Shown here: piece by piece, positions 23,178 to 54,879 of the stretch
Layout: each line of letters opens with the position of its first letter
Numbering within the stretch: the stretch's first letter is position 1
From: a virus
Length of the DNA: 64,000 nt
Strand: one strand, 5' to 3'
Virus record (IMG/VR): IMGVR_UViG_3300025164_000635
Location: 1 to 64,000 of that record
Notes under the pieces: generated by a model
Databases searched by the model: none
What the model was told of the DNA's origin: nothing
What the model saw: the letters and a program-made list of their open reading frames with translations, nothing else
Position numbers and translations under genes: made by a program

Positions 23178-23611
23178 GTAAGGGTGTCCTCCATGACCCG
23201 GATCGTGACTGTCCAGTATTCCTGGGCCGGGGTGAGTTGTCGAATAGGAGGCTCAATGACCATCAGACACCGGTAGCCATTCCCGGCATCTCGATTGACC
23301 GGGAAAGTGGGAGCGTCGTCGTGCAGGATGGGCATGTAGTAGCAGGTCTCGCCGGACAGGGCAATCAAGGCGTCCTTCTCGGCGGGCGTGGCAGTCACCT
23401 GCATGATGGCATCCCGGAACGTTACAATGTCTCCAGCGTTCCTCAAGCGATGGACATGCAATGCACCCGTCAGACTGCGTTCCTGGGAGACGGCTGCGGT
23501 CAAGCGTTCCTCGGGTCCGGGCTGGGCCACATGGTACATCGTTGAGTCATGTACCGGTTCATCGTCACTGTCCAGGAAGAGGTGTATGTGGTTGTGGATG
23601 ATACTAGCCAC
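23174..23611 (-). CDS. distal tail protein-like
   Basis: small gene directly after the tape measure gene; synteny only. Confidence 0.45.
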   Translation of the reverse strand: MASIIHNHIHLFLDSDDEPVHDSTMYHVAQPGPEERLTAAVSQERSLTGALHVHRLRNAGDIVTFRDAIMQVTATPAEKDALIALSGETCYYMPILHDDAPTFPVNRDAGNGYRCLMVIEPPIRQLTPAQEYWTVTIRVMEDTLT

Positions 23612-26600
23612 TCGTCAACTCCTGAACAGCCCGATTTACATTTGCGACGACCGCCTCAGTCAATCGCTCGAAGGCACGGAAAACAGTATCGTGTCCCTTG
23701 AAGTAGGGCTGGTGGGCGCTGCCCAGCGCCCCACTGATGTCTAGCACGATCGCGTTCAGTGAGTTTGCCAGCTTCCCGTTCGGGTCCTTGATGTCTTCTG
23801 AGAAACGATCGAACCGATAGCTCATGGCCGAGGTCAGGACGCCTATCTGATCCTGAAGGCGAATGACTTCCGCTGTGTGCAGCATGGTCTTGATCAGCGA
23901 GACGGCCTGGGCTGCACTCTCAATCTCGAACTGCTTCTTCCGGTCCTCGAAGGCTTTGACCTGCAGGCCATTGGTGATGCTAAAGTGCTTGACCGATTCG
24001 TCATGGCGAAGTTTCGCCATCTTCTGGTCTTCCTCAAACTGCTTGGCGCGTAAGCCGAACTGCTCTTCGTCCAGCTTGCCCTGCTCAAGCAATCGTTCCA
24101 AGGCACGCGCCAGATCCTCTTCAGCCCATTCCCGGCGTGTGTCGATACGATCCTTCTCTTTGCCGAAGTCCTCTTCGGCCCAGCCCCGACGTTCTTCGAG
24201 CCGGTTGCGTTCCCGGTTGAAATCTTCTTGGGCCCACTGCTGTCGTTCTTCTAAGCGTTCCCCTTCCCGGCCCAACTGCTCAACCTGCATCCCATATCCA
24301 ACGACGCCGCGTTCCCGCTGTCGGGACAACTGCCTTCTTTCCCGGCCCGTGGCGTAGCGCATGGCCGTGTCAATGTCCTCCATCTGCCAGCCGAAGGAGA
24401 GAGCTTGCTGCGACCCCTGGAAGGCCAGGTTCTCACGCTGCCATCCAAATTGAGTCTGTCCACGTTGGAAGTTGGTCGTCAGGTCTTGCAAGCTCTGGGT
24501 GAAGCGCGTCATGCTGCGCTCGAAATTCACCGTCAGATCCTGCTCCTGCCAGCCCAACCCAGTCATCTGCCGCTGGTACTGCCGTTGAACGTCCTCTTCG
24601 GTGCGGCCCCGCTGTATGCCGGATACTCTCCTCTGCTGCTCCAAATTCTCGTAGAACTGCCGATAGCCCAGGCCAGCGGCTCCCATGCGTTCCAGGTCAG
24701 CATACTCACCGCCCATCCCCTGGAAGGCATCGGCGCCCCGGCCCAGCCAGCCGTAGTTCATCGTCCCGGCCTGCAACTGGAATTGGCGTCTCTGCGCCCG
24801 GGCGCCTTCCCCAAGTTGCGCCTGCTCAATGTTGAAGCCGCCTGTGAAGTCGTAGCCGCCGATCTGACCGCCCAGCTGGTAGACCTGTTGCCGCCCCAGT
24901 TGCGCCAACTGTTGCTGGTACTGGAACTGCTGATAGGCGCGGTCGGCCATGCGTGCCTGTGATTGCGCCTGAACCAGATTCATGCCCGTGTCGATAGGGG
25001 CTGTCGTCCGGCCGTACAGCCGTTGGCCCATTGCCCAATCGGACGGGGCGAACATGGAGACATCCGTCGTCCCGGCCCTCTGAAGCGTTTCCGGCTCAAC
25101 CTGAATCAGTGATCGGAAGTCTGGTTGCGTAGTCGGGATGGCTCTCTGGATGACCTGCTGTACCTGTCCCATTTGGGCAGCGATGGCTTGCCCGGCCCCG
25201 AAGATGCCTCTTTGCCCACCGACCGCTGCGGCCCGGATGGCTGTTTCCGGGAAGAGGAAGCTCGCCCCTTGCTGCATGAGAGAGCGATCCCTATCTCTCT
25301 GCTCTCTTGCCTCCTGAGTAATGTTCTGCTGCGCCAGTGTCATGTCCTGCATCCGGGTTGCTTCGGCTCGAAGGTTCTGGGCAAACTGGGCCTGCTGCAA
25401 CTGCGGCTGCATCCCCTGAAGGCGGGTCGCTTCCCGGCTGATGGCAACCGGGTCGAGCGATCCAACCCGGGTGAGCATGGTTCTCTGCTCAGGAGACAGG
25501 TTGGTGATCAGGTCGGGTGTCAGGGCTGGCAGTTGGACGCCATACTGCTGCGCTAAGCCGCCGATAGGACTGATCTGGCCGAGATTGAACTGGGCCCTGA
25601 GTTGCTGTTGTGGGGTGAGCGAAATCGCCTGCTGAATTGTTCCAGCAAAGCCGGCCCCGCCCCATTCCATGCCGGCCGCTCTTGCCATGCCCACGCCGAG
25701 CCCCATGCGCTGCTGTTGGAGCTCAGGCGGCAAGAGCATCAATTGCTGCATCGCCTTGATGGACTCAGGCCGCATCATCGTCTGCAAGTCCATCCCAGTT
25801 GCCTGAGCCAGCAAGGCGCCCACCTTGACACCTGTGCCCGCTTCCATCGGCTGCCGGATCGCTTCCATGCGGGCTTCAAGTTCTTTGCCGAACCGGGAGT
25901 AGTCGGCAAATTTCTTCATCTGCTCGGCAGCTTCCTGAGTGGCCTTGGACCCTTCTCGGCTCGACCCTTCGGCCCGTTCTGCCCACATCGCGCCCGTGCG
26001 TTGTGCATCCTTCCAGACATCTGCGCTTTGTGAGAGACTTGCCACCAGGAGACGTGCACCCGTGTCGATTCCACCGAGAAGCTGGTTGACGATCTGACCA
26101 GCGGTTATCCCCTGTTGCCGGCCAATCGTCTCATCGTAGATGGCGCCACCGAGCGCAATCCCACCTGTCAGAGGCCCTGTAATAGCGCCTCCACCGGCAA
26201 GACGAGCGCCGAGAAGAGCACGGGTGCCCAGGATGCCGGCTCCCGTCCCAGCAACTCGCCCTATGGAAGCGCCCGTCTCGCCTCCTTGTGCCTCTCCAAT
26301 GTTTGCTCCAGCCTCTCCCAAGAGCTCGCCGCCCAGCAGTCCTATGCCAAGGGCACCTCCCACAAGGCCACCCCCTACACCAGCCCCCCGTAGCGCCAAT
26401 CGCCCCAGGGCACGTCCTTCCAGGGCATACATTCCTCTCAGGGCCGCTGTCTCACCAAGTCCACGCACACCACGTGCCAAGCCGCCTGCACGACCCACCA
26501 CCCCACCTGCGATATTCTCGGCCAGGCCCGTCATGGGCCGACCCAAAACACCAAGACCCGCCATACTTGCAAGGCGACCGCCACCGGCCAGAGCAAAAAG

Positions 26601-29600
26601 ACTACCCAGTCCTAAGCCACCAGCGGCCAGGGCGTAAGAGCCCAGTGAGGGCTGATCAGGATCTTCCATTCCAAGAACGCCCGAGGTGGCCTCCATGACG
26701 GGTCCCATGATGTCCCATCCAGCCCGACCGACCGACAGACCAAACCTTTGAGCCGCAACCTGCCCACGTCTGACGGTTCCGGCTGGCCCAAAGAAGCCAG
26801 CGGGTCCGCCCATCATAGCAACGTCCTGCTGTTGGCCACCTAGGAACTTGGCGTAATCGTCCATGCGCCCTGTAATCTGGCCGCCTGTCATACGCCAGGC
26901 ACGTTGCAGGTTCCAGGCGGCAAAGGCGATCTGACTGACATCGCCCTCACCAAAGATACGACCCATGGCGCTGCGCGCCGATCGTTGGAGAGCGGCCCTG
27001 GATAGCGGGTCTTGATCCTCGGCGCCCGCTTCCCGGAGTTGGACGATTTGTTGTCCAACCGCTCTTCTCTGCTCAGGCGTGAATCCCAATTCCTGGAAGA
27101 GGCCCCGCAGGCTGCGTGCGGCCTGTATGTCCCCCTGCGGGCCGGCCGCGGCCATCATCTCCTGTGCCCATTTCCGTTCAGCAGGAGCCTCCCTACCCTG
27201 CTGGATGCGCTTCAGGACATCCCCGAAATCCTCAGTGTGTCGGCGTGCCGTTTGAAGGGTCTCTCCGAAATCTTTGAGATACTTGTTCGTCTCCTTCTGT
27301 TGGATCGCGGCGGCCGCAATCTGCCGGAAGTTCTCGGCGGTCGACTCGGGCCCCACTGCCCCACCACCGAGTGTCTTCATTTCCGCGAATCGTTCTGCAA
27401 TGAACTTCTCGGTCACCCGGCCCGATTCGAGACGGCGGAACGTCTCGGCCGCGGCCGGAGTCATCTTGCCTTGGAACATCTGCTCAAGTACACCGCCTTC
27501 GTATCTTTCTCCTCCTTCAGTTGTGCCAGGCGGGAATGTTTCTGCCATGGCCTGGCCGAAAGTCTGTCCCTCTTTGATGCGCTGTCTGATGATCGACAAC
27601 TGCTCCTGAAAGCGCTCACCCCCGTACTTATAACCAAGATTCTTTGGACGTCCCTGGTACATAAGAACCCGACCGATGGCTCTCCCAACATCTCCCCCTT
27701 CCTCGGTGAGGAGCTTGACGAAATCACCCATCGACTGTGCGGCAATGTCGGCTGGAACCTGGCCCGGCTCTTTGTAGCCGGTCGTCGTCGAGGCTTCCCG
27801 TTCGGCTTTTGCTTGTGCTCGCCGACGAGCAACAAATTCAGCCGTCTCAATCCCGCTTCCTTCCTGGAAGATGCCGGCTGCGCGAGCCGATTCTCCAGGG
27901 GTAACCCCACCTGGTGTCTGGGGCGTGAGCCTCGGCTCGGGTGGTGTCTCAGGCTCAGGTGGTATTGCCATCACAGGCGGTCTTCTACTGGGTGGCTTGC
28001 GTCCACCGCCTCCCTGGGCACGAGGAGTTGGCGCTGGGGCAGTCGGATCGAAACGAGCTGCTAGTTCTTCAGGGCTCAACTCACCAGACACACGAGCCTT
28101 CATGGCCGCGTCCAGCCGATCCCGTTCCTCCTTGGCTATCTTCCGCCGCGCCTCTAGTAGCTCGCGTTCTTCGTCGTTTATGTTGGCTAGGTTCCCAGAA
28201 GAACCTGGATTGTCATACTCATCGAGGCTTGGAACTCCCACTCCCAGACGGATACGCTGCATCGCCTCCCAGGATTTCTGGCGGAACGCTTCCAGGCCAC
28301 GGGAGACTGTCTCAGTCACGTAAGTCGGAAGCAGGCCAGCGGAAGCCAGGTCGGACAATAGTCCACGAGCTCTCTCTTCCTCGTCCTCAGACTTTTCGCC
28401 TGTCACCCAAGGCGCGATATTGCCGCTTTCCAGACGTTGGGCGGCTAGCATCGGGGTTGCTAGGCGCTCGAAGAAGCCGAATCCACCGGTCGGCTGCCGT
28501 CCCTTAGCGGTCTGCTGGAAGTTGGTGTACTGTGGATTGTTGATGACATCTCGCATGATGCCACGCAGCCAGGGCGCTTTACTCTGAACACCCCGGTTGG
28601 TGATACGAGTGCCAATCACGGCTGTCAGAGGGCCTGCCTCTTTCCAGAAGCCCTGCTCACCGCCCATCCCCTGAATTAGGTCGTTGACCAGCTCTTCGGT
28701 CACGTCGTCACGGGTGACCCCCTCAAGCCTCTTGGCAATTCCTGTTCTCGTCTCAGGATTGGACGAAAGGAGGGTTGCCACGTCCCGATGCCAGGCTTTG
28801 TTGAGCTGTTCTTTAGTGGGGTCGGCAAAGCCACGGAACTCCTCGGCTTCCAGGACAGCCCGGATGATCTCCTTGGGGAGGGCCTGGAAGTCAACTTCTC
28901 GCTCGGGCGGCTTGCCCATTGTGGGATCGAGGGTTTCCCGAATCTTGCCGCGTACCCGACCTCGGCTGGTCGGGTCGTCTTCCCCGCCCGTCCTCAACGA
29001 ATAGGAGTTCATGATGCCCATCAGGGTTCTCATGCCGGACGAGACCGGCTCGTCCAGAGAAGCTTGATAGGCGAAATAGGAGGTACGCGCCAGAGTATCC
29101 TGTTCGCTCTGGGTGTTCATACCCATCGACTTCATCGCGATGGACAGGTTCCTTACAAACGGGTTGAACACATCGCCCCGCTGCTTCTGGGCAATCTGCT
29201 CGACGAGGTATGCCTGACGAGCGTCCTTGGTGGTGACCGAGGCGTTCATCTGCTCCAGGCTACCAAAGAACTCATCGGCCGTCTTGGGCGCCTTGCCGAC
29301 ATTCTGCATCCACTTGGCGAGTTCGGATGCCTTCATGCCGGTTCGTCTGACCAGATCATCCTCAACCGTCAAGTAGTTCTCCCAAGTGCGCTGACCGTGT
29401 ACCTGCTCACCGGTCACCAGCTCCAGGAACCGGAACTGCCGTTCCAGGAACTCTTCCTCTGTGGATCTCCTGGCGGCCTCGCCCGGCGTGGTGATGGACT
29501 TGCCAATCTTGAACACGGTGGCCAGGAAGAGAGCCACCTGGTCCCCATCTGCGTCCCCTTGGAAGCGGTTGGCGATCATCTGGGAGAAAGCCATCCCCTG

Positions 29601-32600
29601 GAAGTTCCGAGGAACGGGGATTCCCAAGCGGCCCGCCTCGGCGGTCGTCACGATCCGGAAGCCCGGCATGGACGTTACGCCTTGTAGCACGTCTGGTCGC
29701 CTCTGGCCCAAGGCGGTCATACCTGTCTCAACGTACCGATCCAGTGCCTCCTGGCTCATATCCCCTGAAGGCATACCGGTCAGTTCCCGCAACGCTTTTT
29801 CACCAACGATGACTTCCATAGGACGGGCGCCGGGAATGAAGGCATACGTCCCTTCTGTCCCCATGCGACCTGTCACATCTGAGGAGACCAACCCTTTCGC
29901 CACGGCCTTTGTGCCCATCAGTCGATTCATCCGATCACGTACCTGGCCGAAGGCACGCGCCTCTTCATTTGAGCCGGCCCGGGCTTTGACGAGCGTCTCG
30001 TAATAGTGGATGATCGCGTTATGTTCCTCTTGGGGGAACACGTCCTTCTCGGTGCCGGGAATGGGGTTGACCATTCCCGTGACTTCACTCGGAACGCTCA
30101 TGATCGACATCTGCGGCAATGGCGGAGTGATCACTCCGCCCCCAATGTCAACATACCGGCCTGGCGTAACCTGAGCCATCTTCTCAACAAACGAGAGCTC
30201 AGATGGTAGCTTGGCGATCTCTTCTCGGAGGTCTGCTAGGCTGACGACATTCATGTCCTCGCGAGTGGTTGGGTCCCGTGAGGCAGTAGCCGATTTCAGC
30301 AGACTCTCGTAATACTGGCGCTGGTGCCCTCCTTCCCGGAGTGCCCTTTCGGCCATACGAGGCGGCATGGCCTGCAACTCACCGAGCGTGGCCTGAGCCC
30401 GGCCCGTCCAGAGTTTCTCCATCTGGAACATGCGGCCGCCGACCGGCATCGCCCCCTGGAAGGTGACTTCCCGACGCTCGTTCCGATTCTGCCGCCAGTC
30501 ATCCCAGTCGATCTGGCCCAACGACTCCCGCCCATGAACACGGGCGTAGGTTTCGGCCTCCTCGTAGCTGACCGGGATACTCATGCGGACGTTCTGCTTC
30601 ACCATCTGCTGCTGAATGGCTCGTCCGATTTGGATGATGTAGGGGTCTAGTTTTTCGCCCCAGATCAGGCGTTTGCCGGTGATGGCCGCCTTGCTCTTCC
30701 GGGCCCACTCCCGTTCTTCGGGATCATAGTCCTCGACCAATCCTTCTTTGTAAGGGTCAAGACCCATCGACTGAAGCGTTTTAGTTAACAGCTCAAAGCC
30801 GCGTTTCTTGGTAGCGTAATAGTCACTCACCAGCGAGAAAAGTTCCTGACGAGGCGCTTGTGCAACTGGCATCAGCGCTTCAATGTTCAGGGCACCCCCC
30901 TCAACCCGTTTATTCAAGTCCTCGTAGGCCATGCCAACCGCTTTGTTTCCGAGCCAGGACTTGATCAACTCCTGCTCACCGCTAACCTTCCCCACGCCCT
31001 CCACCCGCAGCATGGACTCGCCACTCTCATAATGCTGGAAGGCGCGATTGACTGCAAACTGCATGAACTGCTTGGCCTTGAACGCTATCTCCCGGGCGTG
31101 CCCCAGCCGCCCCAGGGGGATTGAGCCACCGGTCTGCCGGCGATAGGCTTCCTCGTCCGGTGTAAAGTCCACACCCGAAGGAAGAGGGATGTCTTCCTGG
31201 TGGGGAAGGACAAAGCCGCCCTGGGCATCCATCTGCCGCATGGTTGCGGCGTCCATCAACATCATGCCTTCTGGCAAGTTCGGGGTGTACCCCACATTGA
31301 AGTGGATGCCTCGCTCAGAACGAGGAGCTCCTTCCATGCGGAACGGGGAGATGATGTTCCGACCCGTTTCAGGGGCCGCCGAGAGCATGTAGTCCCGGCG
31401 TGCAGCCATCGACACCCGTTTGCGGATCTTGGCAATCTGCTCCAGCAGAAGACCCGCTCTGATTCTTCCCGGCGTAGAAACATGGCCGGGAAGAGCCTTG
31501 TTGAGTTGCTCAATGTCATAGCCCAAGCTTGGATCACGTCCACGTGCCACCAGGCCGCCCGACTTCTCGTACCATCTCTGGACGGTCATCGGGTCGCCAG
31601 ACTCGCGTTCCTGACCTACTTGGTTGATCTTCACAGCCAACTGGTTCAGGGCTTCTCCGGCCGCGGTCGACGTCTCGCCAAAGACAGGCCCGACTCTGGG
31701 CATCCCTTCCATGAGCTTGCGGCGTCTCTCGTTCACGAGACGCATGGCCGCCCGGGGAGTCATCCCCTCTCCAATGGATTTACGCCACACGTGCATCAAC
31801 TCCGAGAAGATCTCGGGCTGGACGGGCCTCATGCCGGCTTCAAACTGGACGGGCGTGACAAGCACATCATCGATCGTCGGCTGGCCACGGAACTCACCCA
31901 ATCGCCCTTCCTGGACGACCGGCATCTCCCCCGTTTCCTTCTCGGAGGCAATGTCGGGCAGAATGAAGCGGCCGCCCTGGGTGAGAATGGACTTGGCTCC
32001 CAGAATCTCTTTGACGCGGCCGTAGGCCACACGTGCAAAGCCCAGAGGGGATGTTTCGGCAACTGGCTCGGTTGGCTTTTCGGCAGCCCTCTGCGGGAGA
32101 CGGGTCGGATCAAAGCTACTGACCCCGATCTCTTGCATATGAGATTGAAGCTCTTTGATAGCCTCTTCTTCCGAGAAGTCTCCCTTCCGGGCGCCCTTCG
32201 CCAGCATGCCGGCGATCTCGTACAGCGCCCGCATATCTCGCCGCCAAGCAAACGGGATGACAGGCGAGCCGGGTTCGCCAGTGCCTCTCTCGAACTCACT
32301 CAGTCGATGGGGGTGAAATCCAGTCCACTTCTCAATGAGACCTGCCTCATCAGAGGCGGCACGGATGGGGGTATAGAGAGTGCCGCCGGGCTGAAACTCT
32401 TTGGCCTCGGCCACAGGCCGCTCAGAATAGGTGATGTTCTTAACCGGTACTAGCTCCGAGGAAAGATGAGGGATTTCCTCGACGTTCTGACCCGTCATAC
32501 GCCTCATGATCTGGCGGGCGTACTCAACCCGGTTCTCTTCGTTCAGGCCGTGCCAAGCGACGATGATGTCTGTCGCAATGGTCTTGGGAGCAAAGAACAG

Positions 32601-33065
32601 GCTGGCCTTTGCTCCTGGGGCAAGGCTTTCTCGGAGTGCGTGGGCATACATTTGGGGCTGGAGAAAATAGCCCTCTTCCTTCGGGGTGCCGGTGTATTTC
32701 TCAGGCTGGAAGTGGACCTTCTCGGTGGGCGTGGAGACCTTAACGTCTGAGACGTTGATGATCTTATCGCCACCGTTCCAGAGCACGACGTCAGGCCGTC
32801 CCTTATAGGGAATATCGTAAGCTCTGCCGGTCAGCCCCTTGATCTGAGTGGAGATACGCGCAACGCCCGTCCCGGAAAGAGTCTCAGGATGGGCTTTTAC
32901 GAAGGGGATCAGTGTGTCTGAGACAAACTGATCGAACTCTTCACCGTGCTTGATGTCTTCAGATGACCAGAAACCCTGCTTGGGATCGCTGGAGAGGTAG
33001 GGCCAGCCTTTAGCGGAATAAGCGGCCGCGCTCGGTCTGACTTCGGGACGATCAGGAGGAGGCAT
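23604..33065 (-). CDS. giant tape-measure protein fused to a putative two-barrel RNA polymerase and an N-terminal PD-(D/E)xK domain
   Basis: tape-measure position after tail tube and chaperones; C-terminal Gly/Ala hydrophobic and Q/E/R helical repeats; QRRP and RFQGDADGDQVALF (aa ~1121, ~1171); KSWLGNKA..EDL (aa ~700); GRPD..DVK..QPQMY (aa ~92-140). Confidence 0.8.
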   Translation of the reverse strand: MPPPDRPEVRPSAAAYSAKGWPYLSSDPKQGFWSSEDIKHGEEFDQFVSDTLIPFVKAHPETLSGTGVARISTQIKGLTGRAYDIPYKGRPDVVLWNGGDKIINVSDVKVSTPTEKVHFQPEKYTGTPKEEGYFLQPQMYAHALRESLAPGAKASLFFAPKTIATDIIVAWHGLNEENRVEYARQIMRRMTGQNVEEIPHLSSELVPVKNITYSERPVAEAKEFQPGGTLYTPIRAASDEAGLIEKWTGFHPHRLSEFERGTGEPGSPVIPFAWRRDMRALYEIAGMLAKGARKGDFSEEEAIKELQSHMQEIGVSSFDPTRLPQRAAEKPTEPVAETSPLGFARVAYGRVKEILGAKSILTQGGRFILPDIASEKETGEMPVVQEGRLGEFRGQPTIDDVLVTPVQFEAGMRPVQPEIFSELMHVWRKSIGEGMTPRAAMRLVNERRRKLMEGMPRVGPVFGETSTAAGEALNQLAVKINQVGQERESGDPMTVQRWYEKSGGLVARGRDPSLGYDIEQLNKALPGHVSTPGRIRAGLLLEQIAKIRKRVSMAARRDYMLSAAPETGRNIISPFRMEGAPRSERGIHFNVGYTPNLPEGMMLMDAATMRQMDAQGGFVLPHQEDIPLPSGVDFTPDEEAYRRQTGGSIPLGRLGHAREIAFKAKQFMQFAVNRAFQHYESGESMLRVEGVGKVSGEQELIKSWLGNKAVGMAYEDLNKRVEGGALNIEALMPVAQAPRQELFSLVSDYYATKKRGFELLTKTLQSMGLDPYKEGLVEDYDPEEREWARKSKAAITGKRLIWGEKLDPYIIQIGRAIQQQMVKQNVRMSIPVSYEEAETYARVHGRESLGQIDWDDWRQNRNERREVTFQGAMPVGGRMFQMEKLWTGRAQATLGELQAMPPRMAERALREGGHQRQYYESLLKSATASRDPTTREDMNVVSLADLREEIAKLPSELSFVEKMAQVTPGRYVDIGGGVITPPLPQMSIMSVPSEVTGMVNPIPGTEKDVFPQEEHNAIIHYYETLVKARAGSNEEARAFGQVRDRMNRLMGTKAVAKGLVSSDVTGRMGTEGTYAFIPGARPMEVIVGEKALRELTGMPSGDMSQEALDRYVETGMTALGQRRPDVLQGVTSMPGFRIVTTAEAGRLGIPVPRNFQGMAFSQMIANRFQGDADGDQVALFLATVFKIGKSITTPGEAARRSTEEEFLERQFRFLELVTGEQVHGQRTWENYLTVEDDLVRRTGMKASELAKWMQNVGKAPKTADEFFGSLEQMNASVTTKDARQAYLVEQIAQKQRGDVFNPFVRNLSIAMKSMGMNTQSEQDTLARTSYFAYQASLDEPVSSGMRTLMGIMNSYSLRTGGEDDPTSRGRVRGKIRETLDPTMGKPPEREVDFQALPKEIIRAVLEAEEFRGFADPTKEQLNKAWHRDVATLLSSNPETRTGIAKRLEGVTRDDVTEELVNDLIQGMGGEQGFWKEAGPLTAVIGTRITNRGVQSKAPWLRGIMRDVINNPQYTNFQQTAKGRQPTGGFGFFERLATPMLAAQRLESGNIAPWVTGEKSEDEEERARGLLSDLASAGLLPTYVTETVSRGLEAFRQKSWEAMQRIRLGVGVPSLDEYDNPGSSGNLANINDEERELLEARRKIAKEERDRLDAAMKARVSGELSPEELAARFDPTAPAPTPRAQGGGGRKPPSRRPPVMAIPPEPETPPEPRLTPQTPGGVTPGESARAAGIFQEGSGIETAEFVARRRAQAKAEREASTTTGYKEPGQVPADIAAQSMGDFVKLLTEEGGDVGRAIGRVLMYQGRPKNLGYKYGGERFQEQLSIIRQRIKEGQTFGQAMAETFPPGTTEGGERYEGGVLEQMFQGKMTPAAAETFRRLESGRVTEKFIAERFAEMKTLGGGAVGPESTAENFRQIAAAAIQQKETNKYLKDFGETLQTARRHTEDFGDVLKRIQQGREAPAERKWAQEMMAAAGPQGDIQAARSLRGLFQELGFTPEQRRAVGQQIVQLREAGAEDQDPLSRAALQRSARSAMGRIFGEGDVSQIAFAAWNLQRAWRMTGGQITGRMDDYAKFLGGQQQDVAMMGGPAGFFGPAGTVRRGQVAAQRFGLSVGRAGWDIMGPVMEATSGVLGMEDPDQPSLGSYALAAGGLGLGSLFALAGGGRLASMAGLGVLGRPMTGLAENIAGGVVGRAGGLARGVRGLGETAALRGMYALEGRALGRLALRGAGVGGGLVGGALGIGLLGGELLGEAGANIGEAQGGETGASIGRVAGTGAGILGTRALLGARLAGGGAITGPLTGGIALGGAIYDETIGRQQGITAGQIVNQLLGGIDTGARLLVASLSQSADVWKDAQRTGAMWAERAEGSSREGSKATQEAAEQMKKFADYSRFGKELEARMEAIRQPMEAGTGVKVGALLAQATGMDLQTMMRPESIKAMQQLMLLPPELQQQRMGLGVGMARAAGMEWGGAGFAGTIQQAISLTPQQQLRAQFNLGQISPIGGLAQQYGVQLPALTPDLITNLSPEQRTMLTRVGSLDPVAISREATRLQGMQPQLQQAQFAQNLRAEATRMQDMTLAQQNITQEAREQRDRDRSLMQQGASFLFPETAIRAAAVGGQRGIFGAGQAIAAQMGQVQQVIQRAIPTTQPDFRSLIQVEPETLQRAGTTDVSMFAPSDWAMGQRLYGRTTAPIDTGMNLVQAQSQARMADRAYQQFQYQQQLAQLGRQQVYQLGGQIGGYDFTGGFNIEQAQLGEGARAQRRQFQLQAGTMNYGWLGRGADAFQGMGGEYADLERMGAAGLGYRQFYENLEQQRRVSGIQRGRTEEDVQRQYQRQMTGLGWQEQDLTVNFERSMTRFTQSLQDLTTNFQRGQTQFGWQRENLAFQGSQQALSFGWQMEDIDTAMRYATGRERRQLSRQRERGVVGYGMQVEQLGREGERLEERQQWAQEDFNRERNRLEERRGWAEEDFGKEKDRIDTRREWAEEDLARALERLLEQGKLDEEQFGLRAKQFEEDQKMAKLRHDESVKHFSITNGLQVKAFEDRKKQFEIESAAQAVSLIKTMLHTAEVIRLQDQIGVLTSAMSYRFDRFSEDIKDPNGKLANSLNAIVLDISGALGSAHQPYFKGHDTVFRAFERLTEAVVANVNRAVQELTSG

Positions 33066-33949: not shown

Positions 33950-35296
33950 TTAGCTGGTCGGTATGGCATACGCTGCGCTGACGGTATTCTGGAAGCGCAC
34001 CTCGGCGTAAGGGGGGCTCACCGGCTTCTGGACGGTGCCGAGAAGAGTGATGATCACTGGCTGTCCAGCCGTGAACGGCAGAGCACCCTGCAACGCCCAG
34101 GACACATTCCCCTGGGTGGTGCGAACATTCAGGGCGAACTGCCGTGCGCCCGATAGGTAAGTCAGGGGACTGTAAGCCCGGAAGTCCACGTCTCCCGTGA
34201 AGGGAGAGGCCGAGAATCGCTTCCCGGTCGTCGAGTTGGTGATCAGAGCCCGATATAGATCGTAGTTGCTGATCAGGGCTGTCGCCCGGAACGTGATCTG
34301 GCGTGTGATGTTCGGGAAGTCTAGAGGACTGTACTCCCCGATGATCATGGCCTGCTCGACCGGCAGCAGAGAGTTCGTGATGGTCACCGTCAGACCCGAA
34401 CACTGCAACTGCTCGCCCTCAATGATGACCTGCGACTTCGGATCGGCTGCGATTGAAAACGCATCGTCGGAGTCGTAAGCATCGGTGAGCCAGTTGATGT
34501 TCACACTATGGCCAGCGCCGGCGATCTCGGTTGTCAGGGCCTCGGCCACCGTGATCTTGGCCGTCGTCGCCGTGACGACGGTGAACGTGCCATTGTTACC
34601 CGCTTCCGTGAAGCCCGACGTGACGATGGAGTCGCCCGGCTCGAAGCGCTGGAAACCGGATGCCGAGTCGTTGAAGCTGTCGTCTGTGGCACTCACAGAG
34701 ATCGTGGCCGCCGTGTAGCGTTTCGGGACGAACAGGTCTTCGTCTTCCGGCGAGCGTGCCATCAAGTCCATGGTGGCCGAGAGCACGCCCATCGACGGCA
34801 GGTTGAGCTCTAGGCTGCCGATACGAGCGTCCTGCATCTGCTCGCCCAGAGCATCTACGCCCGTGGCCGTCACCCCTTCCAGGAAGCGCCGCACAGACAT
34901 ATACGGCGTGTAGTTGGTCTGGGCCGAGTCGTGGGTGAAGGTGTGGATGTACGAGCCGGTCTCGGCTGAGTCGGCGCCGCCGCCGTCGATGTTGAAGGCG
35001 AAGTTGTCTGTGACAGTATCCTTGCCCATGGCCGCCAGGAGTATATGACCGATGTCATCCTGGAGACGAGGCAGGAAGGCGAGTTGGCCGGCTCCCCAGA
35101 CACCGGTCTTGTACATACCGCGTGGCGTGATGTCCGAGCCCGCTTCTAGGGGTAGGTTCCGGGAAGGCTGTGTGGGGCCGAACGGCGCTGCGGTAAAGGG
35201 AAACTTTCGCCAGGCGGGTGTCGCACTCATGAGGTTGTGGTCCCTCTGAATGGCAAGACCGAACTGGGATGCTGCTGCGATGTGAATTTGTCCCAT
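33950..35296 (-). CDS. major tail (tube) protein with an inserted beta domain
   Basis: position; HILLAAMG, YIHTFT, LTVTITNSL patterns; insert GDSIVTSGF...NNGTFTV. Confidence 0.75.
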   Translation of the reverse strand: MGQIHIAAASQFGLAIQRDHNLMSATPAWRKFPFTAAPFGPTQPSRNLPLEAGSDITPRGMYKTGVWGAGQLAFLPRLQDDIGHILLAAMGKDTVTDNFAFNIDGGGADSAETGSYIHTFTHDSAQTNYTPYMSVRRFLEGVTATGVDALGEQMQDARIGSLELNLPSMGVLSATMDLMARSPEDEDLFVPKRYTAATISVSATDDSFNDSASGFQRFEPGDSIVTSGFTEAGNNGTFTVVTATTAKITVAEALTTEIAGAGHSVNINWLTDAYDSDDAFSIAADPKSQVIIEGEQLQCSGLTVTITNSLLPVEQAMIIGEYSPLDFPNITRQITFRATALISNYDLYRALITNSTTGKRFSASPFTGDVDFRAYSPLTYLSGARQFALNVRTTQGNVSWALQGALPFTAGQPVIITLLGTVQKPVSPPYAEVRFQNTVSAAYAIPTS

Positions 35297-42077: not shown

Positions 42078-43739
42078 TCACGTGAGATCATAGGTAATGG
42101 TCAGGCGATTCCCGTCCGCGTCCACGGTGGCCGAGATACGATTCTTGCTATCGGCCACCGCATTGCGGAAGATGGGACTGAGACCTGGTAGGCCGGAGAG
42201 CTTCCCGGCCAGGGCTGCGGCCATGATCGCCACAGCCTGTCGAAACGTCAGGCCCACCTCAATTGCATCTACCCGATCCAGCAGGGCGTCTGCGACCGCG
42301 TTCCTCTCTGCGACCGTCAGGGCAACTCCATCGGTTCCGGTATCGGCCAAGATAGATTGCGCGGTACTCTCCAGTGCTGCGGCCCCGGCCGATAGGTTAT
42401 CGAGATAGCCGGCTCGTAAGGCAGTCAGCCTTCCTTCCAGGTCGTCCACCTTTGATTCAATATCGGCCAGGTCTGCCGAAACAGAAGCACCGGTCGGCGT
42501 CCCTACCTTAGTCTGGAGATCGTCTGTGTCGGCCAAAACGGATTGAGCGGTGCTTTCCAGAGCTGTAGCGCCCGCTGACAAGTTGTCCAGATAGCCGGCA
42601 CGTAGTTCAGTGAGTCGGCCCTCCAGGTCATCTACCTTGCTCTCGATGTCAGCCAGGTCCGCCGAGAAGGATGTCCCAACTGGCGTCCCGAGCTTTGTCT
42701 GAAGATCATCGGTGTCGGCCTGGATACTCACGGCGGTACTCTCCAGGGCGACTGCACCGCCCGACAGATTGTCCAGGTAGCCGGCCCGCAAGTCAGTTAA
42801 TCGCCCTTCCAGGTCATCGACTTTCGACTCGATGTCGGCTAAGTCTGCCGAGAAGGAAATGCCCGTTGGCGTCCCTAGCTTGGTCTGAAGATCGTCCGTG
42901 TCGGCCAGAATTTCTGTGGCGGTACTTTGTAGCGCCACAGCACCACCTGACAGGTTATCCAAGTAAGCCGCGCGCACGGCGGTCAATCGTCCCTCCAGAT
43001 CATCGGTCGCCGTCACGATAGACTGAGCCGTAGCTTCCAGTGCGACTGCCCCGGCTGATAGATTATCCAGGTAGCCAGCGCGCAGTGTGGTCAACCGTCC
43101 TTCCAGGTCATCTACTTTTGATTCGATGTCGGCTAAGTCTGCCGAGAAGGAACCTCCTGTGGGCGTTCCGATCTTGGCCTGGATGTCGTCCGTGTCGGCC
43201 AAGATGGATTGAGCGGTGCTCTCCAGGGTCACTGCGCCCGCCGAGAGGTTATCCAGGTAGCCAGCGCGAGTGTCCGTAAGCCTCCCTTCCAGGTCATCGA
43301 CTTTGCCCTCGACGTCTGCAATGTCGGCGGCCACAGAAACGCCCGTGGGCGTGCCAATCTTGGTCTGGAGATCGTCTGTGTCAGCTTGCACAGTAGCGAG
43401 TGCCGCGGCTGTGGAGAGAGCATCGATCTGATTGGTGCTCGTCTGAATGTTGACGCTTAGATCACACCATTCATTCCCAGCTACATCACTGAATGTGATA
43501 TTTATGTTGTCGGCGTTCATCTCTGAGGCCGACAACGTGACCTTGACCATCGTTCCGCTCGCGGGGGTAACGACTGGTAGTGTGGCTAGGTTGTTAAAGG
43601 GCCCTCCATCCAGGCTTACCTTGACATCGCCCGCCGCCAAGGTTGGATTCACCTGGAAGAGCTTCGTGTTAAATTGGCTAGTGAGACCAATGTAAAAGAT
43701 GAACTCTGTATTCTTCTTGGGCGGCAAATAGGAGGCCAT
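42078..43739 (-). CDS. fibre-like virion protein with 62-aa tandem repeats
   Basis: 5 full and 1 partial DTDDLQTK.GTP...DDLEGRLT..RAGYLDNLS repeats; C-terminal RISATVDADGNR. Confidence 0.75.
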   Translation of the reverse strand: MASYLPPKKNTEFIFYIGLTSQFNTKLFQVNPTLAAGDVKVSLDGGPFNNLATLPVVTPASGTMVKVTLSASEMNADNINITFSDVAGNEWCDLSVNIQTSTNQIDALSTAAALATVQADTDDLQTKIGTPTGVSVAADIADVEGKVDDLEGRLTDTRAGYLDNLSAGAVTLESTAQSILADTDDIQAKIGTPTGGSFSADLADIESKVDDLEGRLTTLRAGYLDNLSAGAVALEATAQSIVTATDDLEGRLTAVRAAYLDNLSGGAVALQSTATEILADTDDLQTKLGTPTGISFSADLADIESKVDDLEGRLTDLRAGYLDNLSGGAVALESTAVSIQADTDDLQTKLGTPVGTSFSADLADIESKVDDLEGRLTELRAGYLDNLSAGATALESTAQSVLADTDDLQTKVGTPTGASVSADLADIESKVDDLEGRLTALRAGYLDNLSAGAAALESTAQSILADTGTDGVALTVAERNAVADALLDRVDAIEVGLTFRQAVAIMAAALAGKLSGLPGLSPIFRNAVADSKNRISATVDADGNRLTITYDLT

Positions 43740-49469: not shown

Positions 49470-49811
49470 CCACCCCACCCCACCTGCTCCATCAGGGCTA
49501 CCAACGCTTCCGTCACCCGTATCCACTCGTCCCACTGCGCCACCAGACGCCTTGGCGCGTTCGCTCTCATCATCGACGCCCTCTCTATCAGCGCCCTCAA
49601 CTCCCCCACCCCCAACGGCCTCAAACTCTCTTCGGTCACCATCCCTCACACCTCCTCTTACAGAGTCCCCCTATTCTACCACTCCCCACCCTTCTCGGCC
49701 TCACCCACGCATACAACTTGGCCGCCGGAAAAGGGAGAAATATATAAGAACAGATGGCCTTTTAGTGAAGTATAGGGCTTTCTGTCCACATCCAGGAAAG
49801 GAGAAAGTGTC

Positions 49812-49919
49812 ATGTCACAGGTTGGTTCGTTCATTCTGTTGGTCGTGGCCGCCGTGTTCATTCTGGCTGGTGGTGGCGCAGGCGTCATCATCGGGCAACT
49901 GTTCACGATGGGCTTCTAA
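49812..49919 (+). CDS. 35-aa membrane peptide, first gene of the rightward early cluster (not in ORF track)
   Basis: AGGAAAGGAGA RBS; MSQVGSFILLVVAAVFILAGGGAGVIIGQLFTMGF. Confidence 0.6.
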   Translation: MSQVGSFILLVVAAVFILAGGGAGVIIGQLFTMGF

Positions 49920-50019
49920 CTGAATAGCAGAGGCAGAGGGGCAACCGAAAGGTTGTGTCCCTCGCCCTCTGGGATTCAGCCGAAAGGCTATACCAAGAAT
50001 CCTGGAAAGGAGAACAGCC

Positions 50020-50265
50020 ATGTTGCAGATCAACCATGTCGAGATCAGGACAATCGAGGCCGCGAAACTGATGGACTTCGTGGGCAAGGCGCAACCGTCT
50101 GCTTGGGGTATCGGTCGGTATGCCCTGCAGGCAGGGCAGCCCACCATCCAGGTTGAGCAGCGGGTGTGCCATGCCGCCGCTCTTGAACTGCGCCAGTTGG
50201 CCGCAGAGAAGGACATCGCCAACCCGGCGCTGTTCGCTATTGCGGCCTATCTCGGCAATCTGTAA
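50020..50265 (+). CDS. early hypothetical protein
   Basis: AAGGAGA RBS. Confidence 0.65.
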   Translation: MLQINHVEIRTIEAAKLMDFVGKAQPSAWGIGRYALQAGQPTIQVEQRVCHAAALELRQLAAEKDIANPALFAIAAYLGNL

Positions 50266-50369
50266 AACAACTGAATATCGCAGAGAGGGGCTAGGCCATA
50301 GGCTTAGCTCTAATGCGGCATACCGGTCTCAAGCCCGGTAAACCCATGTCGCATAAAGGAGAAAGAGTC

Positions 50370-50561
50370 ATGCGTACAGTTATCCAGGACCGGGTAGCTT
50401 CAGAAGCTACTCGGAGAGCATACGAACGTATGATGGAGAGCAACCCAAGACCCAGCTACCAGCCTCAGTCTGAGGCCGAAGCCTGGAGACAGGCGTGGAT
50501 CTCAGGCAAGGTCAGCCTAGGGGATGTCCCGGCTCGCTATCGCTCCCTCGTTGCTCGCTAA
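50370..50561 (+). CDS. early hypothetical protein
   Basis: AAGGAGA RBS before MRTVIQ. Confidence 0.6.
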   Translation: MRTVIQDRVASEATRRAYERMMESNPRPSYQPQSEAEAWRQAWISGKVSLGDVPARYRSLVAR

Positions 50562-50676
50562 CAATCGAATATCTGCCTTCTTCCAGGAAGGCAGAGCAGG
50601 CTCATTCTCTCGGAGGAGGATGGGCCTGCTCTGCTTTCTGGGACTAGAGCCCAGAGCAGAGAAAAGGAGAATCACC

Positions 50677-50871
50677 ATGACGTACCCGAAAGGCTACACC
50701 AACGACTACGCTACCATCTGGGAGCAACGCATGAGCAAGGCCATCGGCCTGCACCTACACTGGCTGACTGAGGCATGCTACCAGGCCGCTCTTTACAGCG
50801 ACCGCCTCACCATCCAGGCTCAGGTCAAGCTGGGCAAGCTCTACATGGCTGCCAGCAAGGGCGGCAAGTAG
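50677..50871 (+). CDS. early hypothetical protein
   Basis: AAGGAGA RBS before MTYPKG. Confidence 0.65.
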   Translation: MTYPKGYTNDYATIWEQRMSKAIGLHLHWLTEACYQAALYSDRLTIQAQVKLGKLYMAASKGGK

Positions 50872-50982
50872 TCGTCAATCTACTTCTGTCTTCCCCTCCG
50901 GGAAGGCAGAGGCTTGGGTATCACGGTATCCAAGCCTCTGCCTTTCGGGACTAGAGCCCGAAGCAGAGAAAAGGAGAAACCC

Positions 50983-51252
50983 ATGTCTCACAAGATCATC
51001 TTCGTGCTGGTGCTGGTCGGGCTGATGCTGGCCTTCACGGCCTGTGATGCCTCGAAAGAGGCAGGCTGGACGACCTCCTGTATCCGGGAGTACAAGGCCG
51101 CCAACGATGGGGCTGATCCGGATGCGGACACACTCAAGGCGTGCGTTGAGGCCAAGAGAGATGCTGCTGAGTCTCTCAACAAGACACTCAATCAGGGCAA
51201 GCAGCAGGCCGAAGCCCTGGTTGCTACACCCGTCCCTGACCCCAATAAGTAG
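50983..51252 (+). CDS. lipoprotein (possible superinfection exclusion)
   Basis: MSHKIIFVLVLVGLMLAFTAC lipobox; RBS. Confidence 0.7.
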   Translation: MSHKIIFVLVLVGLMLAFTACDASKEAGWTTSCIREYKAANDGADPDADTLKACVEAKRDAAESLNKTLNQGKQQAEALVATPVPDPNK

Positions 51253-51384
51253 CAAGCTATAGACAACCAAATATCGCTTCACCCCTGCTCCCTCATGGGA
51301 GCAGACCAGAGCCACTCTCCTGCGAGGGCGGCTCTGGTCTGCTTCTGGGACTAGAGCCCAGGCAAACAGAAAGGAGTAGTAGCC

Positions 51385-51879
51385 ATGTTACACAATCCGT
51401 TGTTCTGGTTCTGTGTTGCAGCTCTGCTTGTTGCTATCCATGAGCTGATCGTCCGCAATCGCAACCCCTTCTACGAGCTGGACTTGCGGGAGTATTACGA
51501 GCCGAGCTCCCAGGAAGGGGATGAGTGCCCCATCTGCGGTGTCATGGGCGGGCACGATGCCGAGATATGCACGGGTGATGAGTATGCCGGCGTGTGCCGT
51601 GAGGACTTCTATGTCCAATTCGGCAACACCCCAGAAGTTCGGGAGCTGTATCACATCTGGGTCTCTGAGGCTAATGTGGAGTTCCGCTGGATGGTCATGG
51701 ATATGTGCGGCATGTACGGTGCCTCCGAGACCTTGGGCCGCCTCCGGGAAGCCATCAACGAGGAGCGGCCTCTCGACTTGCCATCCAGCAAAGAGATGCA
51801 CCGCCGCATCCTCCGGGCTTGCCCCGATCCCGACCTCGCCCGCGGTATGGGTGAGGAGACCCTCTACAGAGTGCGATAG
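51385..51879 (+). CDS. membrane-anchored protein with a CPIC...H...C motif
   Basis: N-terminal TM helix; AAGGAG RBS. Confidence 0.6.
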   Translation: MLHNPLFWFCVAALLVAIHELIVRNRNPFYELDLREYYEPSSQEGDECPICGVMGGHDAEICTGDEYAGVCREDFYVQFGNTPEVRELYHIWVSEANVEFRWMVMDMCGMYGASETLGRLREAINEERPLDLPSSKEMHRRILRACPDPDLARGMGEETLYRVR

Positions 51880-51887
51880 GAGGAACA

Positions 51888-52307
51888 GTGGATAAGTATG
51901 TACGGGTCCGTCTGACGAGCGCTAGCCTCTTGGCGCAGTCAGATCCCTTCCCAGTGTTGTTGTGGTACGACGCCAGGAAGCGGGCCGTCCACCTGAAGGT
52001 CATCTCCAGCGCGGGTGGGCGGTATGACGTGCACCTTCGGTTCCAGGTGCACGAGGGCAAGGCTTACCTCATGGATCGGATGTGCTTCTGTGAGGACTTC
52101 GAGTCCTCGATGAAGCACTTCGACATGCTCCAGGAGCTCGGGATGCCGGTTGAGGGGAGTGCCTTGCCTCTCTATCGGGGCCTGCCCATCTGCAAGCACA
52201 TCCTGCTCGGCGGTCTGAAGGTGATCGCCGAGAACTGGGTGGCCCTCTTCCTGGATGGGCAGCCGCAGGCTAAAGCCTTCCAGGAAGATGAAGTCCTGCC
52301 GTTCTAG
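51888..52307 (+). CDS. SWIM zinc-finger protein
   Basis: SS..G.Y.V...CFCEDF...ICKHI. Confidence 0.75.
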   Translation: MDKYVRVRLTSASLLAQSDPFPVLLWYDARKRAVHLKVISSAGGRYDVHLRFQVHEGKAYLMDRMCFCEDFESSMKHFDMLQELGMPVEGSALPLYRGLPICKHILLGGLKVIAENWVALFLDGQPQAKAFQEDEVLPF

Positions 52308-52476
52308 CACGAGCAAAACAACACACGTGCCTCTTGTGCACTCCAATGACGCCACTGGTGTCTGGACATGCAAGAGAGGCATGTGCCATATCATGCCGAA
52401 AGGCAGCGCTTGGCCGCGTTACAGCCGATTGAACGACCTGATAGGCAGGAATCAACCTACATAAAGGAGAACAGCC

Positions 52477-54879
52477 ATGTCGTTCACGTCATTTCGCTCT
52501 ACCCGTAAGGTGGTTGTGGTGGACCGCTTCGGGCGACCCACCGGAGAGGAAAGGATTCTCTCTAACAGCCCGATCGACGCCCTGTTCCCTGACGAGAAGA
52601 TCGTCATGGTGAACTGGAAGTACGAGGGCGCGAAGGCGCCCACCGCTGAAGAGTTGCGCCGGCCGATCCGCCACGGCGGCAACGAGTACCGTGGTGACTG
52701 GGCCTGGGGCAGCAGCGTCAAGCGCGGATACACTGTGGGCCTGACCCGTGACCTGCTGGTGGACACGGGATTGCTGAACTGCTGTGAGGACGCCCACCGA
52801 TTCGGTCGGGCGTTCCTTGCCAACGGCCTGTATGGGGCCGGGAAGGGTGAGCTGCACATCAAGTTCGTGCCCGAAGGGACTCAGACCCTGGCCGGCCCGG
52901 TGGCGGACGGCTTCGGGTATGTGAGACGCTCGGTGGCCGAGAAGATGAATGCCGGACACGACAAGATCAAGTTCGGCACCGCGCGCGACTCGTCGCACTG
53001 GTGGCAGCGCATTCCCTGGACATCCGAGATCCAGGAAGAGCTGGAGCCGCTTCTGCGTGACAACCTGGTGGAGGCTGGTGACCCCGGGTTGTGGATGTTG
53101 AGGCAGTTAGGCGACCGCGATCAGGGTCGCCGCCACCTGGTCGAAGCCGAGCCGTTGATGGCTGAGCACCCGTATGTGGCGAACATGCTCATGAGGGTGT
53201 CCTCAGACATCCTGGCCCGGGCGGCCACGACGGTCCCCCTGAATCACGCGGTGAAGGTTACTGTGCCCGCGAACGTCCCCAACATCGCTGTGGACGGGAA
53301 AACACTGAGCACGCGCTACCCGATCGATGCCAAGAACTCCATCCGGGCGAACAACAACACGCTCAACACCGTGGAAGCCGAGATGGAGCGGATTGCCGAG
53401 ATGGAGCGGATTGCCCAGATGGAGGTCATTCAGTATGGCATGACCTCCATGGGTGACCATCCCTTCTCGGCTAAAGGCTGCGCCGGGATCGTTGACGATG
53501 ATCTCCTCGATGCCGACTTCGTGTTGTGCACGAAGGACATCAAGATGGGTGACAAGAAGTTGGTGGACATCAAGGCGGAGATCGTGGTCTCGGTGACCCA
53601 GTGGTTTGCCCAGGGCGAGGCGGTCGGTGTGAATACGAAGTTCTGGGCCGACCAGGGCGGTGATTGCGACGGCGATCTGGCGTTGATCGCCGATTGCAGT
53701 GAGTTGCCCCGCCTGTGGGAGGCGGTTAGCGGGTTTGGGCTCCAGCCCACGCCCAAGCTCATCAAGACTCACACGAAGCTGGAGGACGAGGACATCCGGG
53801 GTGAGTTGGCTGAGAAATCCATGCTGAATGTGGTCGGCATGGCAGTCAACCTCATGGCTGCGACGTTTGTCACGGCCAACCGGGAAGAGATGGCCCACCG
53901 CCTGGGCTATGCGAGTGAGGCTGCCCTGGATAACGCCCTGAATTACTGGGTGAAAGCAGGCACGGATCTCTTCAAGGTGTCTGTCGACACCAAGCAGCTC
54001 ATGCAAGATCTCTCTCGGTTCCAGAGCAAGCTGGTCAATGTGCTCGGTACGCTGCCGCCGTGGGTGAGCTGGCCCAACGACTGGGCCTTCACGCACGGCG
54101 TCCCGTCCTTCTGGAACGAGGACGAGATGGGTCACCTGAAGAGCGACGATCCTGTTCGGAAGAATGCCGTTCCTACCAATTCCTGGTACGACGGGACCAT
54201 CGTCCAGATCATGAGGCTGACCCTGCTCGCCCTCAGCGCGATGCTGAGCCATACCCTGGCTGTGCGGCCGCTGCATGACTTCCAGAGATGGGCCCTGGTT
54301 GTGCCGGACAGTGTTCTGGGGCCCGCGATCGGTCTCCAGAAGATGTTCGTAGCCGAGTCCCAGCGCGTCAACTGGGAGTGGCCCCAGGATGTCGTCCGCT
54401 TCAGCCAGTGGTGGGCCGAGAAGGTCGCCACCTGGAAGAACGAGATGGGCCTGGATGACACCCTAGCCTGCGCTGCTATCTGGCGCGCGGCCCATGACAT
54501 GCGGAGCAAATACGCCGGGGCGTCGTCTGTGTTCATGGCCTTCCCGGAAGAAGTACTGGATATTCTCCGGGATAAGCCCGGCCTCTCCAAGTTGGTGTCT
54601 GGTGTCATCCTCGGCCTGCCCGAAGTGACCGAGGAGACGGTCATCCAGGGCACCGTTCGGGAGTTCAAACGCAAGGACTCACAGTCCGGCCGGACCGTCA
54701 TCCGCAAGTGCTTGGTGGACGGTAACTCGGGCCTACCCCATATGCCCGACATCAACTACCCGGGCGCGATTGCCGTCTTTGCTTCGGATCACCCGTCGCC
54801 CGAGAATGGGCTGAAGGTGACCGTCAAGGTCACCCGGCGCACCAAGAAGTCCTGGTTCGCTGATTGCATCTGCCAGTAG
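52477..54879 (+). CDS. single-subunit two-barrel RNA polymerase (YonO / cellular-RdRP-like)
   Basis: ADGFGYV, TRYP, QY...SAKGC...DFVL..KDIK, catalytic GGDCDGD (53662-53676), G...N...AGTDLFK. Confidence 0.8.
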   Translation: MSFTSFRSTRKVVVVDRFGRPTGEERILSNSPIDALFPDEKIVMVNWKYEGAKAPTAEELRRPIRHGGNEYRGDWAWGSSVKRGYTVGLTRDLLVDTGLLNCCEDAHRFGRAFLANGLYGAGKGELHIKFVPEGTQTLAGPVADGFGYVRRSVAEKMNAGHDKIKFGTARDSSHWWQRIPWTSEIQEELEPLLRDNLVEAGDPGLWMLRQLGDRDQGRRHLVEAEPLMAEHPYVANMLMRVSSDILARAATTVPLNHAVKVTVPANVPNIAVDGKTLSTRYPIDAKNSIRANNNTLNTVEAEMERIAEMERIAQMEVIQYGMTSMGDHPFSAKGCAGIVDDDLLDADFVLCTKDIKMGDKKLVDIKAEIVVSVTQWFAQGEAVGVNTKFWADQGGDCDGDLALIADCSELPRLWEAVSGFGLQPTPKLIKTHTKLEDEDIRGELAEKSMLNVVGMAVNLMAATFVTANREEMAHRLGYASEAALDNALNYWVKAGTDLFKVSVDTKQLMQDLSRFQSKLVNVLGTLPPWVSWPNDWAFTHGVPSFWNEDEMGHLKSDDPVRKNAVPTNSWYDGTIVQIMRLTLLALSAMLSHTLAVRPLHDFQRWALVVPDSVLGPAIGLQKMFVAESQRVNWEWPQDVVRFSQWWAEKVATWKNEMGLDDTLACAAIWRAAHDMRSKYAGASSVFMAFPEEVLDILRDKPGLSKLVSGVILGLPEVTEETVIQGTVREFKRKDSQSGRTVIRKCLVDGNSGLPHMPDINYPGAIAVFASDHPSPENGLKVTVKVTRRTKKSWFADCICQ

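Follow-up and report, generated by a model that had tools for sequence, protein, structure and literature searches.

The window analysed here, the first 64 kb (64,000 nucleotides) of the 95,304-bp IMG/VR virus record IMGVR_UViG_3300025164_000635, which CheckV rates as complete, raises the question of whether one of its putative virion proteins carries an RNA polymerase (RNAP) within a tape measure. The question concerns a minus-strand open reading frame (ORF) at 23604–33065, a single reading frame of 3153 aa whose product we call P0001. A preliminary description had read this protein as a tape measure fused to a two-barrel RNAP, and the single ORF, all the motifs it quoted and a Pro-rich linker were located where it had placed them. 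Our analysis indicates that P0001 probably starts with a very divergent single-chain RNAP that would be injected to begin viral transcription.

The preliminary description had not known such a fusion from the literature. It has in fact been published for Thermus phage P23-45, whose gp96 (5002 aa) is a tape measure with an N-terminal two-barrel virion RNAP (Chaban et al., Nat Commun 2024, PMC10770324). The active fragment of gp96 spans residues 327–1124 with DFDGD at 779–783, and crystal structures exist (PDB 8h2n); the enzyme transcribes the pre-early genes, among them that of the non-virion RNAP (nvRNAP) gp64, and gp96-type proteins also occur in P74-26, G20c and TSP4 (PMC10770324). Among 50,697 phage records, homologues of gp96 were confined to Thermus phages, and a literature search found no other paper on fusions of a tape measure with an RNAP. 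In P23-45 virions the RNAP remains part of full-length gp96 (PMC10770324); cleavage of the RNAP from the tape measure of P0001, which the preliminary description had entertained, would be pure speculation. We regard P0001 as this known architecture in a new sequence family that escapes annotation, with a nuclease-like domain added, rather than as a new invention.

A conserved metal-binding signature in P0001

The whole protein matched nothing in Pfam, PHROGs, NCBIfam or the PDB sequences, as a single sequence or as a profile. From the N-terminus it consists of a nuclease-like region, an RNAP-like core, a Pro-rich linker and a tape-measure-like half, all encoded on the minus strand. The candidate beta'-like catalytic barrel, the double-psi beta-barrel DPBB-A (aa 1066–1190; 29496–29870), contains GRMGTEG...VIVG at aa 1066–1088 (VIVG itself at aa 1085–1088), QRRP at aa 1121–1124 (29694–29705) and DADGD at aa 1171–1175 (29541–29555; with the preceding glycine, GDADGD, aa 1170–1175, 29541–29558). 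Upstream of it lies a candidate beta-like barrel, DPBB-B (aa 585–745; 30831–31313), with YTPNLPEGMMLMD at aa 593, LPEGM at aa 597 (including E598), an inserted beta-sandwich, IKSWLGNKAVGMAYEDL at aa 701, KSWLGNKA at aa 702–709 (K702-x-W-x3-K708) and NIEALMP at aa 727 (IEALMP, aa 728–733).

An exhaustive phmmer search with aa 500–1650 against 1.84 billion representative proteins yielded six homologues: four giants of 2766–3188 aa, a probably truncated protein of 1690 aa and a fragment with a frameshift. A seventh family member came from a metagenome scan, on contig Ga0114923_10000314, where the upstream order matches that of the window (a 474/502-aa protein, an adaptor, a 448/398-aa protein and the giant gene). 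Identity to P0001 was 20–35%, except for the 97%-identical relative P0008. About 50 of the 3153 columns were invariant in the family alignment, among them K702, W704, K708, R1122, P1124, D1171, D1173 and D1175. In 7/7 members R-x-P was followed, after 45–49 residues, by GD[FYA]D[GA]D. The DxDGD metal-binding loop of two-barrel RNAPs was likewise found in 7/7 members, and the three aspartates of DADGD, a motif whose lack of conservation in homologues would have undermined the preliminary description, were invariant throughout the family. The pattern [RK]xPx{20,100}DxDxD has been used as a filter for two-barrel RNAPs (Chaban et al., PMC10770324, Supplementary Data 4), and every member of the P0001 family satisfied it. 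Only two of the 132 ORFs of the genome fitted the R.P ... DxDxD filter pattern, namely P0001 and an N6 methyltransferase.

Conservation extended beyond the catalytic loop. LPEG[MV] was present in 4/6 members and MSEGM in one other. After the catalytic motif comes a conserved region predicted to be mostly helical (aa 1195–1580; 28326–29483), a possible equivalent of the bridge helix and trigger loop, with invariant N1301, R1305, Q1334, D1338 and Y1355; comparison with the corresponding parts of known RNAPs gave nothing significant. A Pro/Gly-rich linker at about aa 1655–1725 (27891–28103), with PPSRRPP at 27975–27995, separates the enzyme half from the ruler half. In the latter, an FGWxMED region (aa 2891 in P0001) was kept by every full-length member, and three of the four full-length members besides P0001 had Gly-rich hydrophobic C-terminal segments. 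The enzyme-like and ruler-like halves were joined in every full-length homologue, which shows that the fusion is conserved and is not an assembly artefact. Other searches recovered little: a word-indexed homologue search gave nothing and later only a 97% fragment, scans of viral contigs with P0001, its alignment and two homologues gave no match, tblastn against cultured phages gave none for either half, and the ESM Atlas held no usable match for the polymerase region.

The core is preceded by about 560 extra N-terminal residues carrying RecB-like D...DxK...QxxxY motifs. This PD-(D/E)xK / RecB-like set (aa 80–141; 32643–32828; D92, D107-V-K109, Q137xxxY141) appeared in the family consensus and, by pattern, in 4/6 members; the RecB/Cas4-like motifs were kept by pattern in P0002, P0005 and P0006, and P0004 was without the first ~590 residues altogether. 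The region had no sequence match in the PDB, and by its motifs we describe it as a candidate nuclease-like domain.

Profile and structural comparisons with RNA polymerases

Profile–profile comparison by hhalign of the P0001 family with the gp96 family produced a sole match, to gp96 718–795, the DFDGD barrel (E 0.021, probability 2%), in which VIVG/PIVIG, RRP/RNP and DxDGD were collinear. Against the family of P0009, the second putative RNAP of this phage, the alignment was limited to the motif.

For structural comparison, aa 560–1580 were modelled with AlphaFold2 from an 8-sequence alignment. Foldseek against the PDB returned nothing at E ≤ 1e-3. RNAP large subunits occupied 18 of the 49 top listed rows, all with E > 0.06, and comprised AR9 and bacterial beta' chains and vaccinia Rpo132. 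In VIA, the beta-sandwich at aa 620–693 (30987–31208) gave a weak alignment to the 'wall' domain that second-largest RNAP subunits carry, and aa 1073–1184 were placed on the phiKZ nvRNAP; a wide VIA search with the polymerase-region model gave only helical bundles. There was no fold-level match of P0001 to the class of QDE-1, plant RDR2 and YonO. A Foldseek search of BFVD gave a single match at E ≤ 0.001, A0A7R7G2L5_2 (E 4e-6, probability 0.90, TM 0.1), which is uninterpretable with this model, and the rows after it were tape-measure-like helical proteins. The entry A0A7R7G2L5_2 covers the second part of a long viral protein, possibly a further giant tail protein of this type.

The register of the sandwich was compared by mapping the E. 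coli beta motifs onto the VIA-matched chains. The match ended at residues 969–970 in K. phaffii Rpb2, 901 in yeast Pol III and 865–867 in an archaeal RNAP, with the conserved lysine pair at 979/987, 911/919 and 875/883, respectively. It started about 19 residues past the ED motif in the African swine fever virus chain and about 19–21 residues past it in the archaeal RNAP (residue numbers deduced from a close archaeal relative of that chain). In P0001 the sandwich starts 22–24 residues past E598 and ends 9–11 residues before K702/K708. The flanking motifs were thus in register within about 3 residues, for ED in two lineages and for the lysines in three. This agreement in spacing suggests that the sandwich occupies the point at which the beta-type barrel is interrupted by the wall/flap domain.

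A second polymerase, the early operon and the likeness to P23-45

P0009 (800 aa; 52477..54879, plus strand) is a single-subunit two-barrel RNAP with GDCDGD at aa 394–400. Nine homologues shared the consensus GGDFDGD and an invariant R-Y-P. Its model (predicted local distance difference test score, pLDDT, 59.8) matched QDE-1 in Foldseek (E 2e-5, probability 1.0), with a fold match over both barrels together with DxDGD, as in QDE-1/RdRP-like enzymes. In fold P0009 resembles QDE-1, RDR2 and P23-45 gp64, all of them two-barrel RNAPs of a single subunit, and in the ESM Atlas it adjoins RdRP-annotated clusters. P0009 thus resembles QDE-1, plant RDR2 and YonO by fold, and P0001 resembles them by its catalytic signature. 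We consider P0009 a candidate for the non-virion RNAP of the phage. An 18-nt tandem repeat lies inside its gene (53377–53430; AEMERI ×3).

The P0009 gene is the last of an early operon of small genes on the plus strand (49797..52476 up to P0009), which starts near 49.8 kb, has strong AAAGGAG ribosome-binding sites and structured leaders, and diverges from the minus-strand terminase/portal/structural module. A Type-P5 twister ribozyme (50279–50338, plus strand; score 50 bits, gathering threshold 37.6, E 3.8e-8) is placed between two small early genes, immediately ahead of a ribosome-binding site. Three hairpins with the invariant loop/stem core GGGACTAGAGCCC (50629–50671, 50936–50978 and 51336–51378, plus strand) each stand directly 5' of AAAGGAG and a small early gene's ATG; more hairpins lie upstream. 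These hairpins might act as promoters at which the injected polymerase starts, be sites of processing, or represent ribozyme-like elements.

Homologues of P0009 (32–37% identity) were found in metagenome-assembled genomes labelled Anaerolineae, Anaerolineaceae and Chloroflexia, which hints at Chloroflexota hosts; these may be prophage copies. One of them lies near the end of a 286-kb contig. The giant protein had no match in four Chloroflexota or uncultured metagenome-assembled genomes that contain a P0009 homologue, and on viral contigs a P0009 homologue was found once only, on a 20-kb fragment.

With these genes in place the parallel to P23-45 is extensive. P0001, in what would be the tape-measure slot, and gp96 are both giant proteins with an N-terminal [RK]xP...DxDGD signature and C-terminal membrane segments. 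In both phages a second, separate two-barrel RNAP is encoded in a cluster of early genes divergent from the packaging genes: in P23-45 the small pre-early genes and gp64 adjoin and diverge from the packaging genes, as do the early operon and P0009 in the window, and in both cases the predicted cascade runs from the virion RNAP (vRNAP) to the nvRNAP. The window thus shares with P23-45 its general plan, in which a (here putative) RNAP precedes a tape-measure-like part carrying membrane segments and a candidate nvRNAP is encoded separately among the early genes. No homology of P0001 to gp96 was detected by phmmer or hmmsearch against the PDB (gp96 included) or by tblastn against phages, so that the two share the kind of architecture and belong to different sequence families. 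P0001 is shorter (3153 versus 5002 aa), and its catalytic motif stands at aa 1171 rather than 779 because the ~560 extra residues precede the core. The metallopeptidase domain present in gp96 had no counterpart, as no peptidase family was found in the whole of P0001. P23-45 uses an AT-rich linear promoter, whereas the early genes of the window are headed by structured elements.

Virion-carried polymerases within giant multidomain proteins that perform the first transcription are also represented by gp66 of phi14:2, a crAss-like phage, and by the N4 vRNAP. These differ in being capsid or cargo proteins of short-tailed phages, and the N4 vRNAP is in addition a T7-like enzyme, not a two-barrel one. 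No similarity of gp66 to P0001 was recovered; its absence from the Foldseek and VIA lists is not evidence against a relationship.

The P23-45-like scheme as a whole, with a tail-delivered vRNAP followed by the early operon and then the nvRNAP, seems to us slightly better supported than not. P0001 would be a virion protein built like gp96, with its RNAP core at about aa 585–1580 and the catalytic Mg site formed by D1171/D1173/D1175; the Pro-rich linker would connect this core to a tape-measure-like half whose Gly-rich segments would be membrane-active. It would be assembled into the tail; on infection the ruler half would exit first and form or line an envelope channel, and the polymerase half would next reach the cytoplasmic face with the leading DNA end. 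We infer that the injected polymerase would then transcribe the first-entering early operon (~49.8–54.9 kb) without host RNAP, until the 800-aa second RNAP, encoded at the operon end, takes over early and middle transcription. If this is true, tape-measure-fused virion RNAPs would be no peculiarity of Thermus phages but a recurrent solution in unrelated phages. P0001 would then offer a second, very different sequence for comparison, in which the connector is longer, a nuclease-like domain is added and a peptidase is lacking. Two questions would become open to experiment: in what way a tail stores a large enzyme and lets it pass, and by what means transcription is tied to the entry of DNA. Since such polymerases have no Pfam, PHROG or NCBIfam match, early transcription that is independent of the host is probably commoner in metagenomic phages than current counts show. 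A bolder combination appears doubtful: that P0001 represents a second tail-delivered RNAP lineage, independently evolved or unrecognisably diverged, in probable Chloroflexota phages, that its nuclease prepares the entering DNA end, and that the twister and hairpin leaders are structure-specific promoters or processing sites, the whole forming a self-contained, entry-coupled transcription module unlike that of P23-45.

Alternative readings and the genes around P0001

Several results weigh against a tail-delivered polymerase. The AlphaFold2 model of P0001 was poor (pLDDT 53.6, predicted template modelling score 0.33, pLDDT below 50 at the catalytic loop), which is why the double-psi barrels were not seen in it, and every match of the polymerase domain to solved structures stayed below significance. 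Outside the DxDGD motif, neither sequence nor profile comparison linked P0001 significantly to any RNAP: once the motif was cut out, the hhalign scores of the upstream, downstream and beta-like regions against gp96, gp64, the P0009 family and E. coli beta and beta' did not exceed those of reversed controls. The resemblances to beta quoted in the preliminary description (PEGM versus NFED, K..NKA versus K..GNKG) fell within these controls, and its beta-like alignments are still unproven. A lack of similarity outside the motif is nevertheless to be expected, as the authors of the P23-45 paper report an equal lack among RNAP families (PMC10770324). The candidate barrels of P0001 are joined by a largely helical connector of about 320 aa, unlike the short, disordered one that makes the clamp-less polymerase of gp96 flat, and this leaves passage through a tail tube unexplained. 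Finally, P0001 has DADGD where the usual form of the family is DFDGD or DYDGD.

The GDxDGD loop could instead belong to another metal-dependent enzyme or to a structural Ca/Mg site, with no RNAP in P0001 and P0009 as the only polymerase of the phage's own. Acidic DxDxD-type loops are known from other metal-binding proteins too, significant RNAP similarity does not extend past ~18–30 residues around the motif, and no barrel fold is seen in the model. However, a hydrophobic or aromatic second position with a fixed upstream R.P is a specific RNAP signature, independent weak structural matches fell on both beta-type and beta'-type chains in the expected places, and with P0009 alone its gene would still need a first transcriber; we consider this explanation unlikely. 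That the module has kept its fold and decayed into a catalytically dead structural or DNA-binding plug is suggested by the alanine that P0001 and its 97%-identical relative P0008 carry where other members have Phe or Tyr. The three aspartates, the glycine, R.P and the lysine pair are all intact, however, and H, N, G or C are tolerated at that position in other two-barrel RNAP families, including the P0009 family and phiFa (DHDGD), which makes a dead enzyme very improbable. The motif invariance, the weak, position-consistent RNAP matches and the second RNAP gene are still best explained by a tape-measure-like virion protein with a two-barrel RNAP in its N-terminal half, even though the barrel fold that the preliminary description proposed to seek with AlphaFold and Foldseek was not demonstrated. 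We consider it quite likely that P0001 contains a genuine two-barrel RNAP module.

The tape-measure label is the weakest part of this reading and was drawn from gene order and composition. The C-terminal half (aa 1726–3153; 23607–27890) has Gly/Ala-rich hydrophobic segments (aa 2141–2246; 26328–26645) and Q/E/R-rich helical repeats, a composition like that of tape-measure proteins, and matched no tape-measure family, PDB entry or cultured phage. Around the giant gene the order is adaptor, a 189-aa protein, a 448-aa protein (33950–35296), two small proteins, P0001, a 145-aa protein, a 1304-aa protein and fibre-like proteins, and both order and sizes parallel P23-45 gp92–gp100. The preliminary description had set the gene between tail chaperones and tail-tip genes, which we could not verify: no tail-tube, sheath, chaperone, tape-measure or distal-tail (Dit, Tal) family was matched by P0001 or its neighbours, and the sole family match of the adaptor was SU10_adaptor, a podophage family (E 3.6e-5, below the Pfam cut-off). 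Upstream, two ORFs overlap, but they contain no slippery heptamer; the second begins at an ATGA overlap and the pair looks ATGA-coupled, so that a chaperone frameshift was rejected. The lack of tail-family neighbours and of a frameshift site, together with the podophage-type adaptor, admits a reading in which the polymerase is right and the length ruler wrong: P0001 would be an internal or cargo protein ejected from a short-tailed or otherwise atypical virion, comparable to crAss-like gp66 and the N4 vRNAP, with the C-terminal half as a trans-envelope conduit. Against this stand a gene order that mirrors that of siphophages and P23-45 and a C-terminal half with the long helical repeats and hydrophobic segments typical of tape measures. 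We rate the cargo protein as rather unlikely and a tape-measure role for P0001 as fairly probable.

Several other genes of the window were recorded. Between the portal gene and a putative capsid gene lies the gene of a 553-aa coiled-coil protein with DUF7310 (42078–43739, minus strand; E 1e-16), which is probably scaffolding-like. A histidine-kinase-like protein (HisKA and HATPase_c, E 1.7e-25) is encoded among the tail-fibre genes at 12582–13511 on the minus strand. On the plus strand the window encodes two DNA methyltransferases, a C5-cytosine enzyme of 638 aa (3121–5037) and an N6-adenine enzyme of the D12 class (9225–10046).

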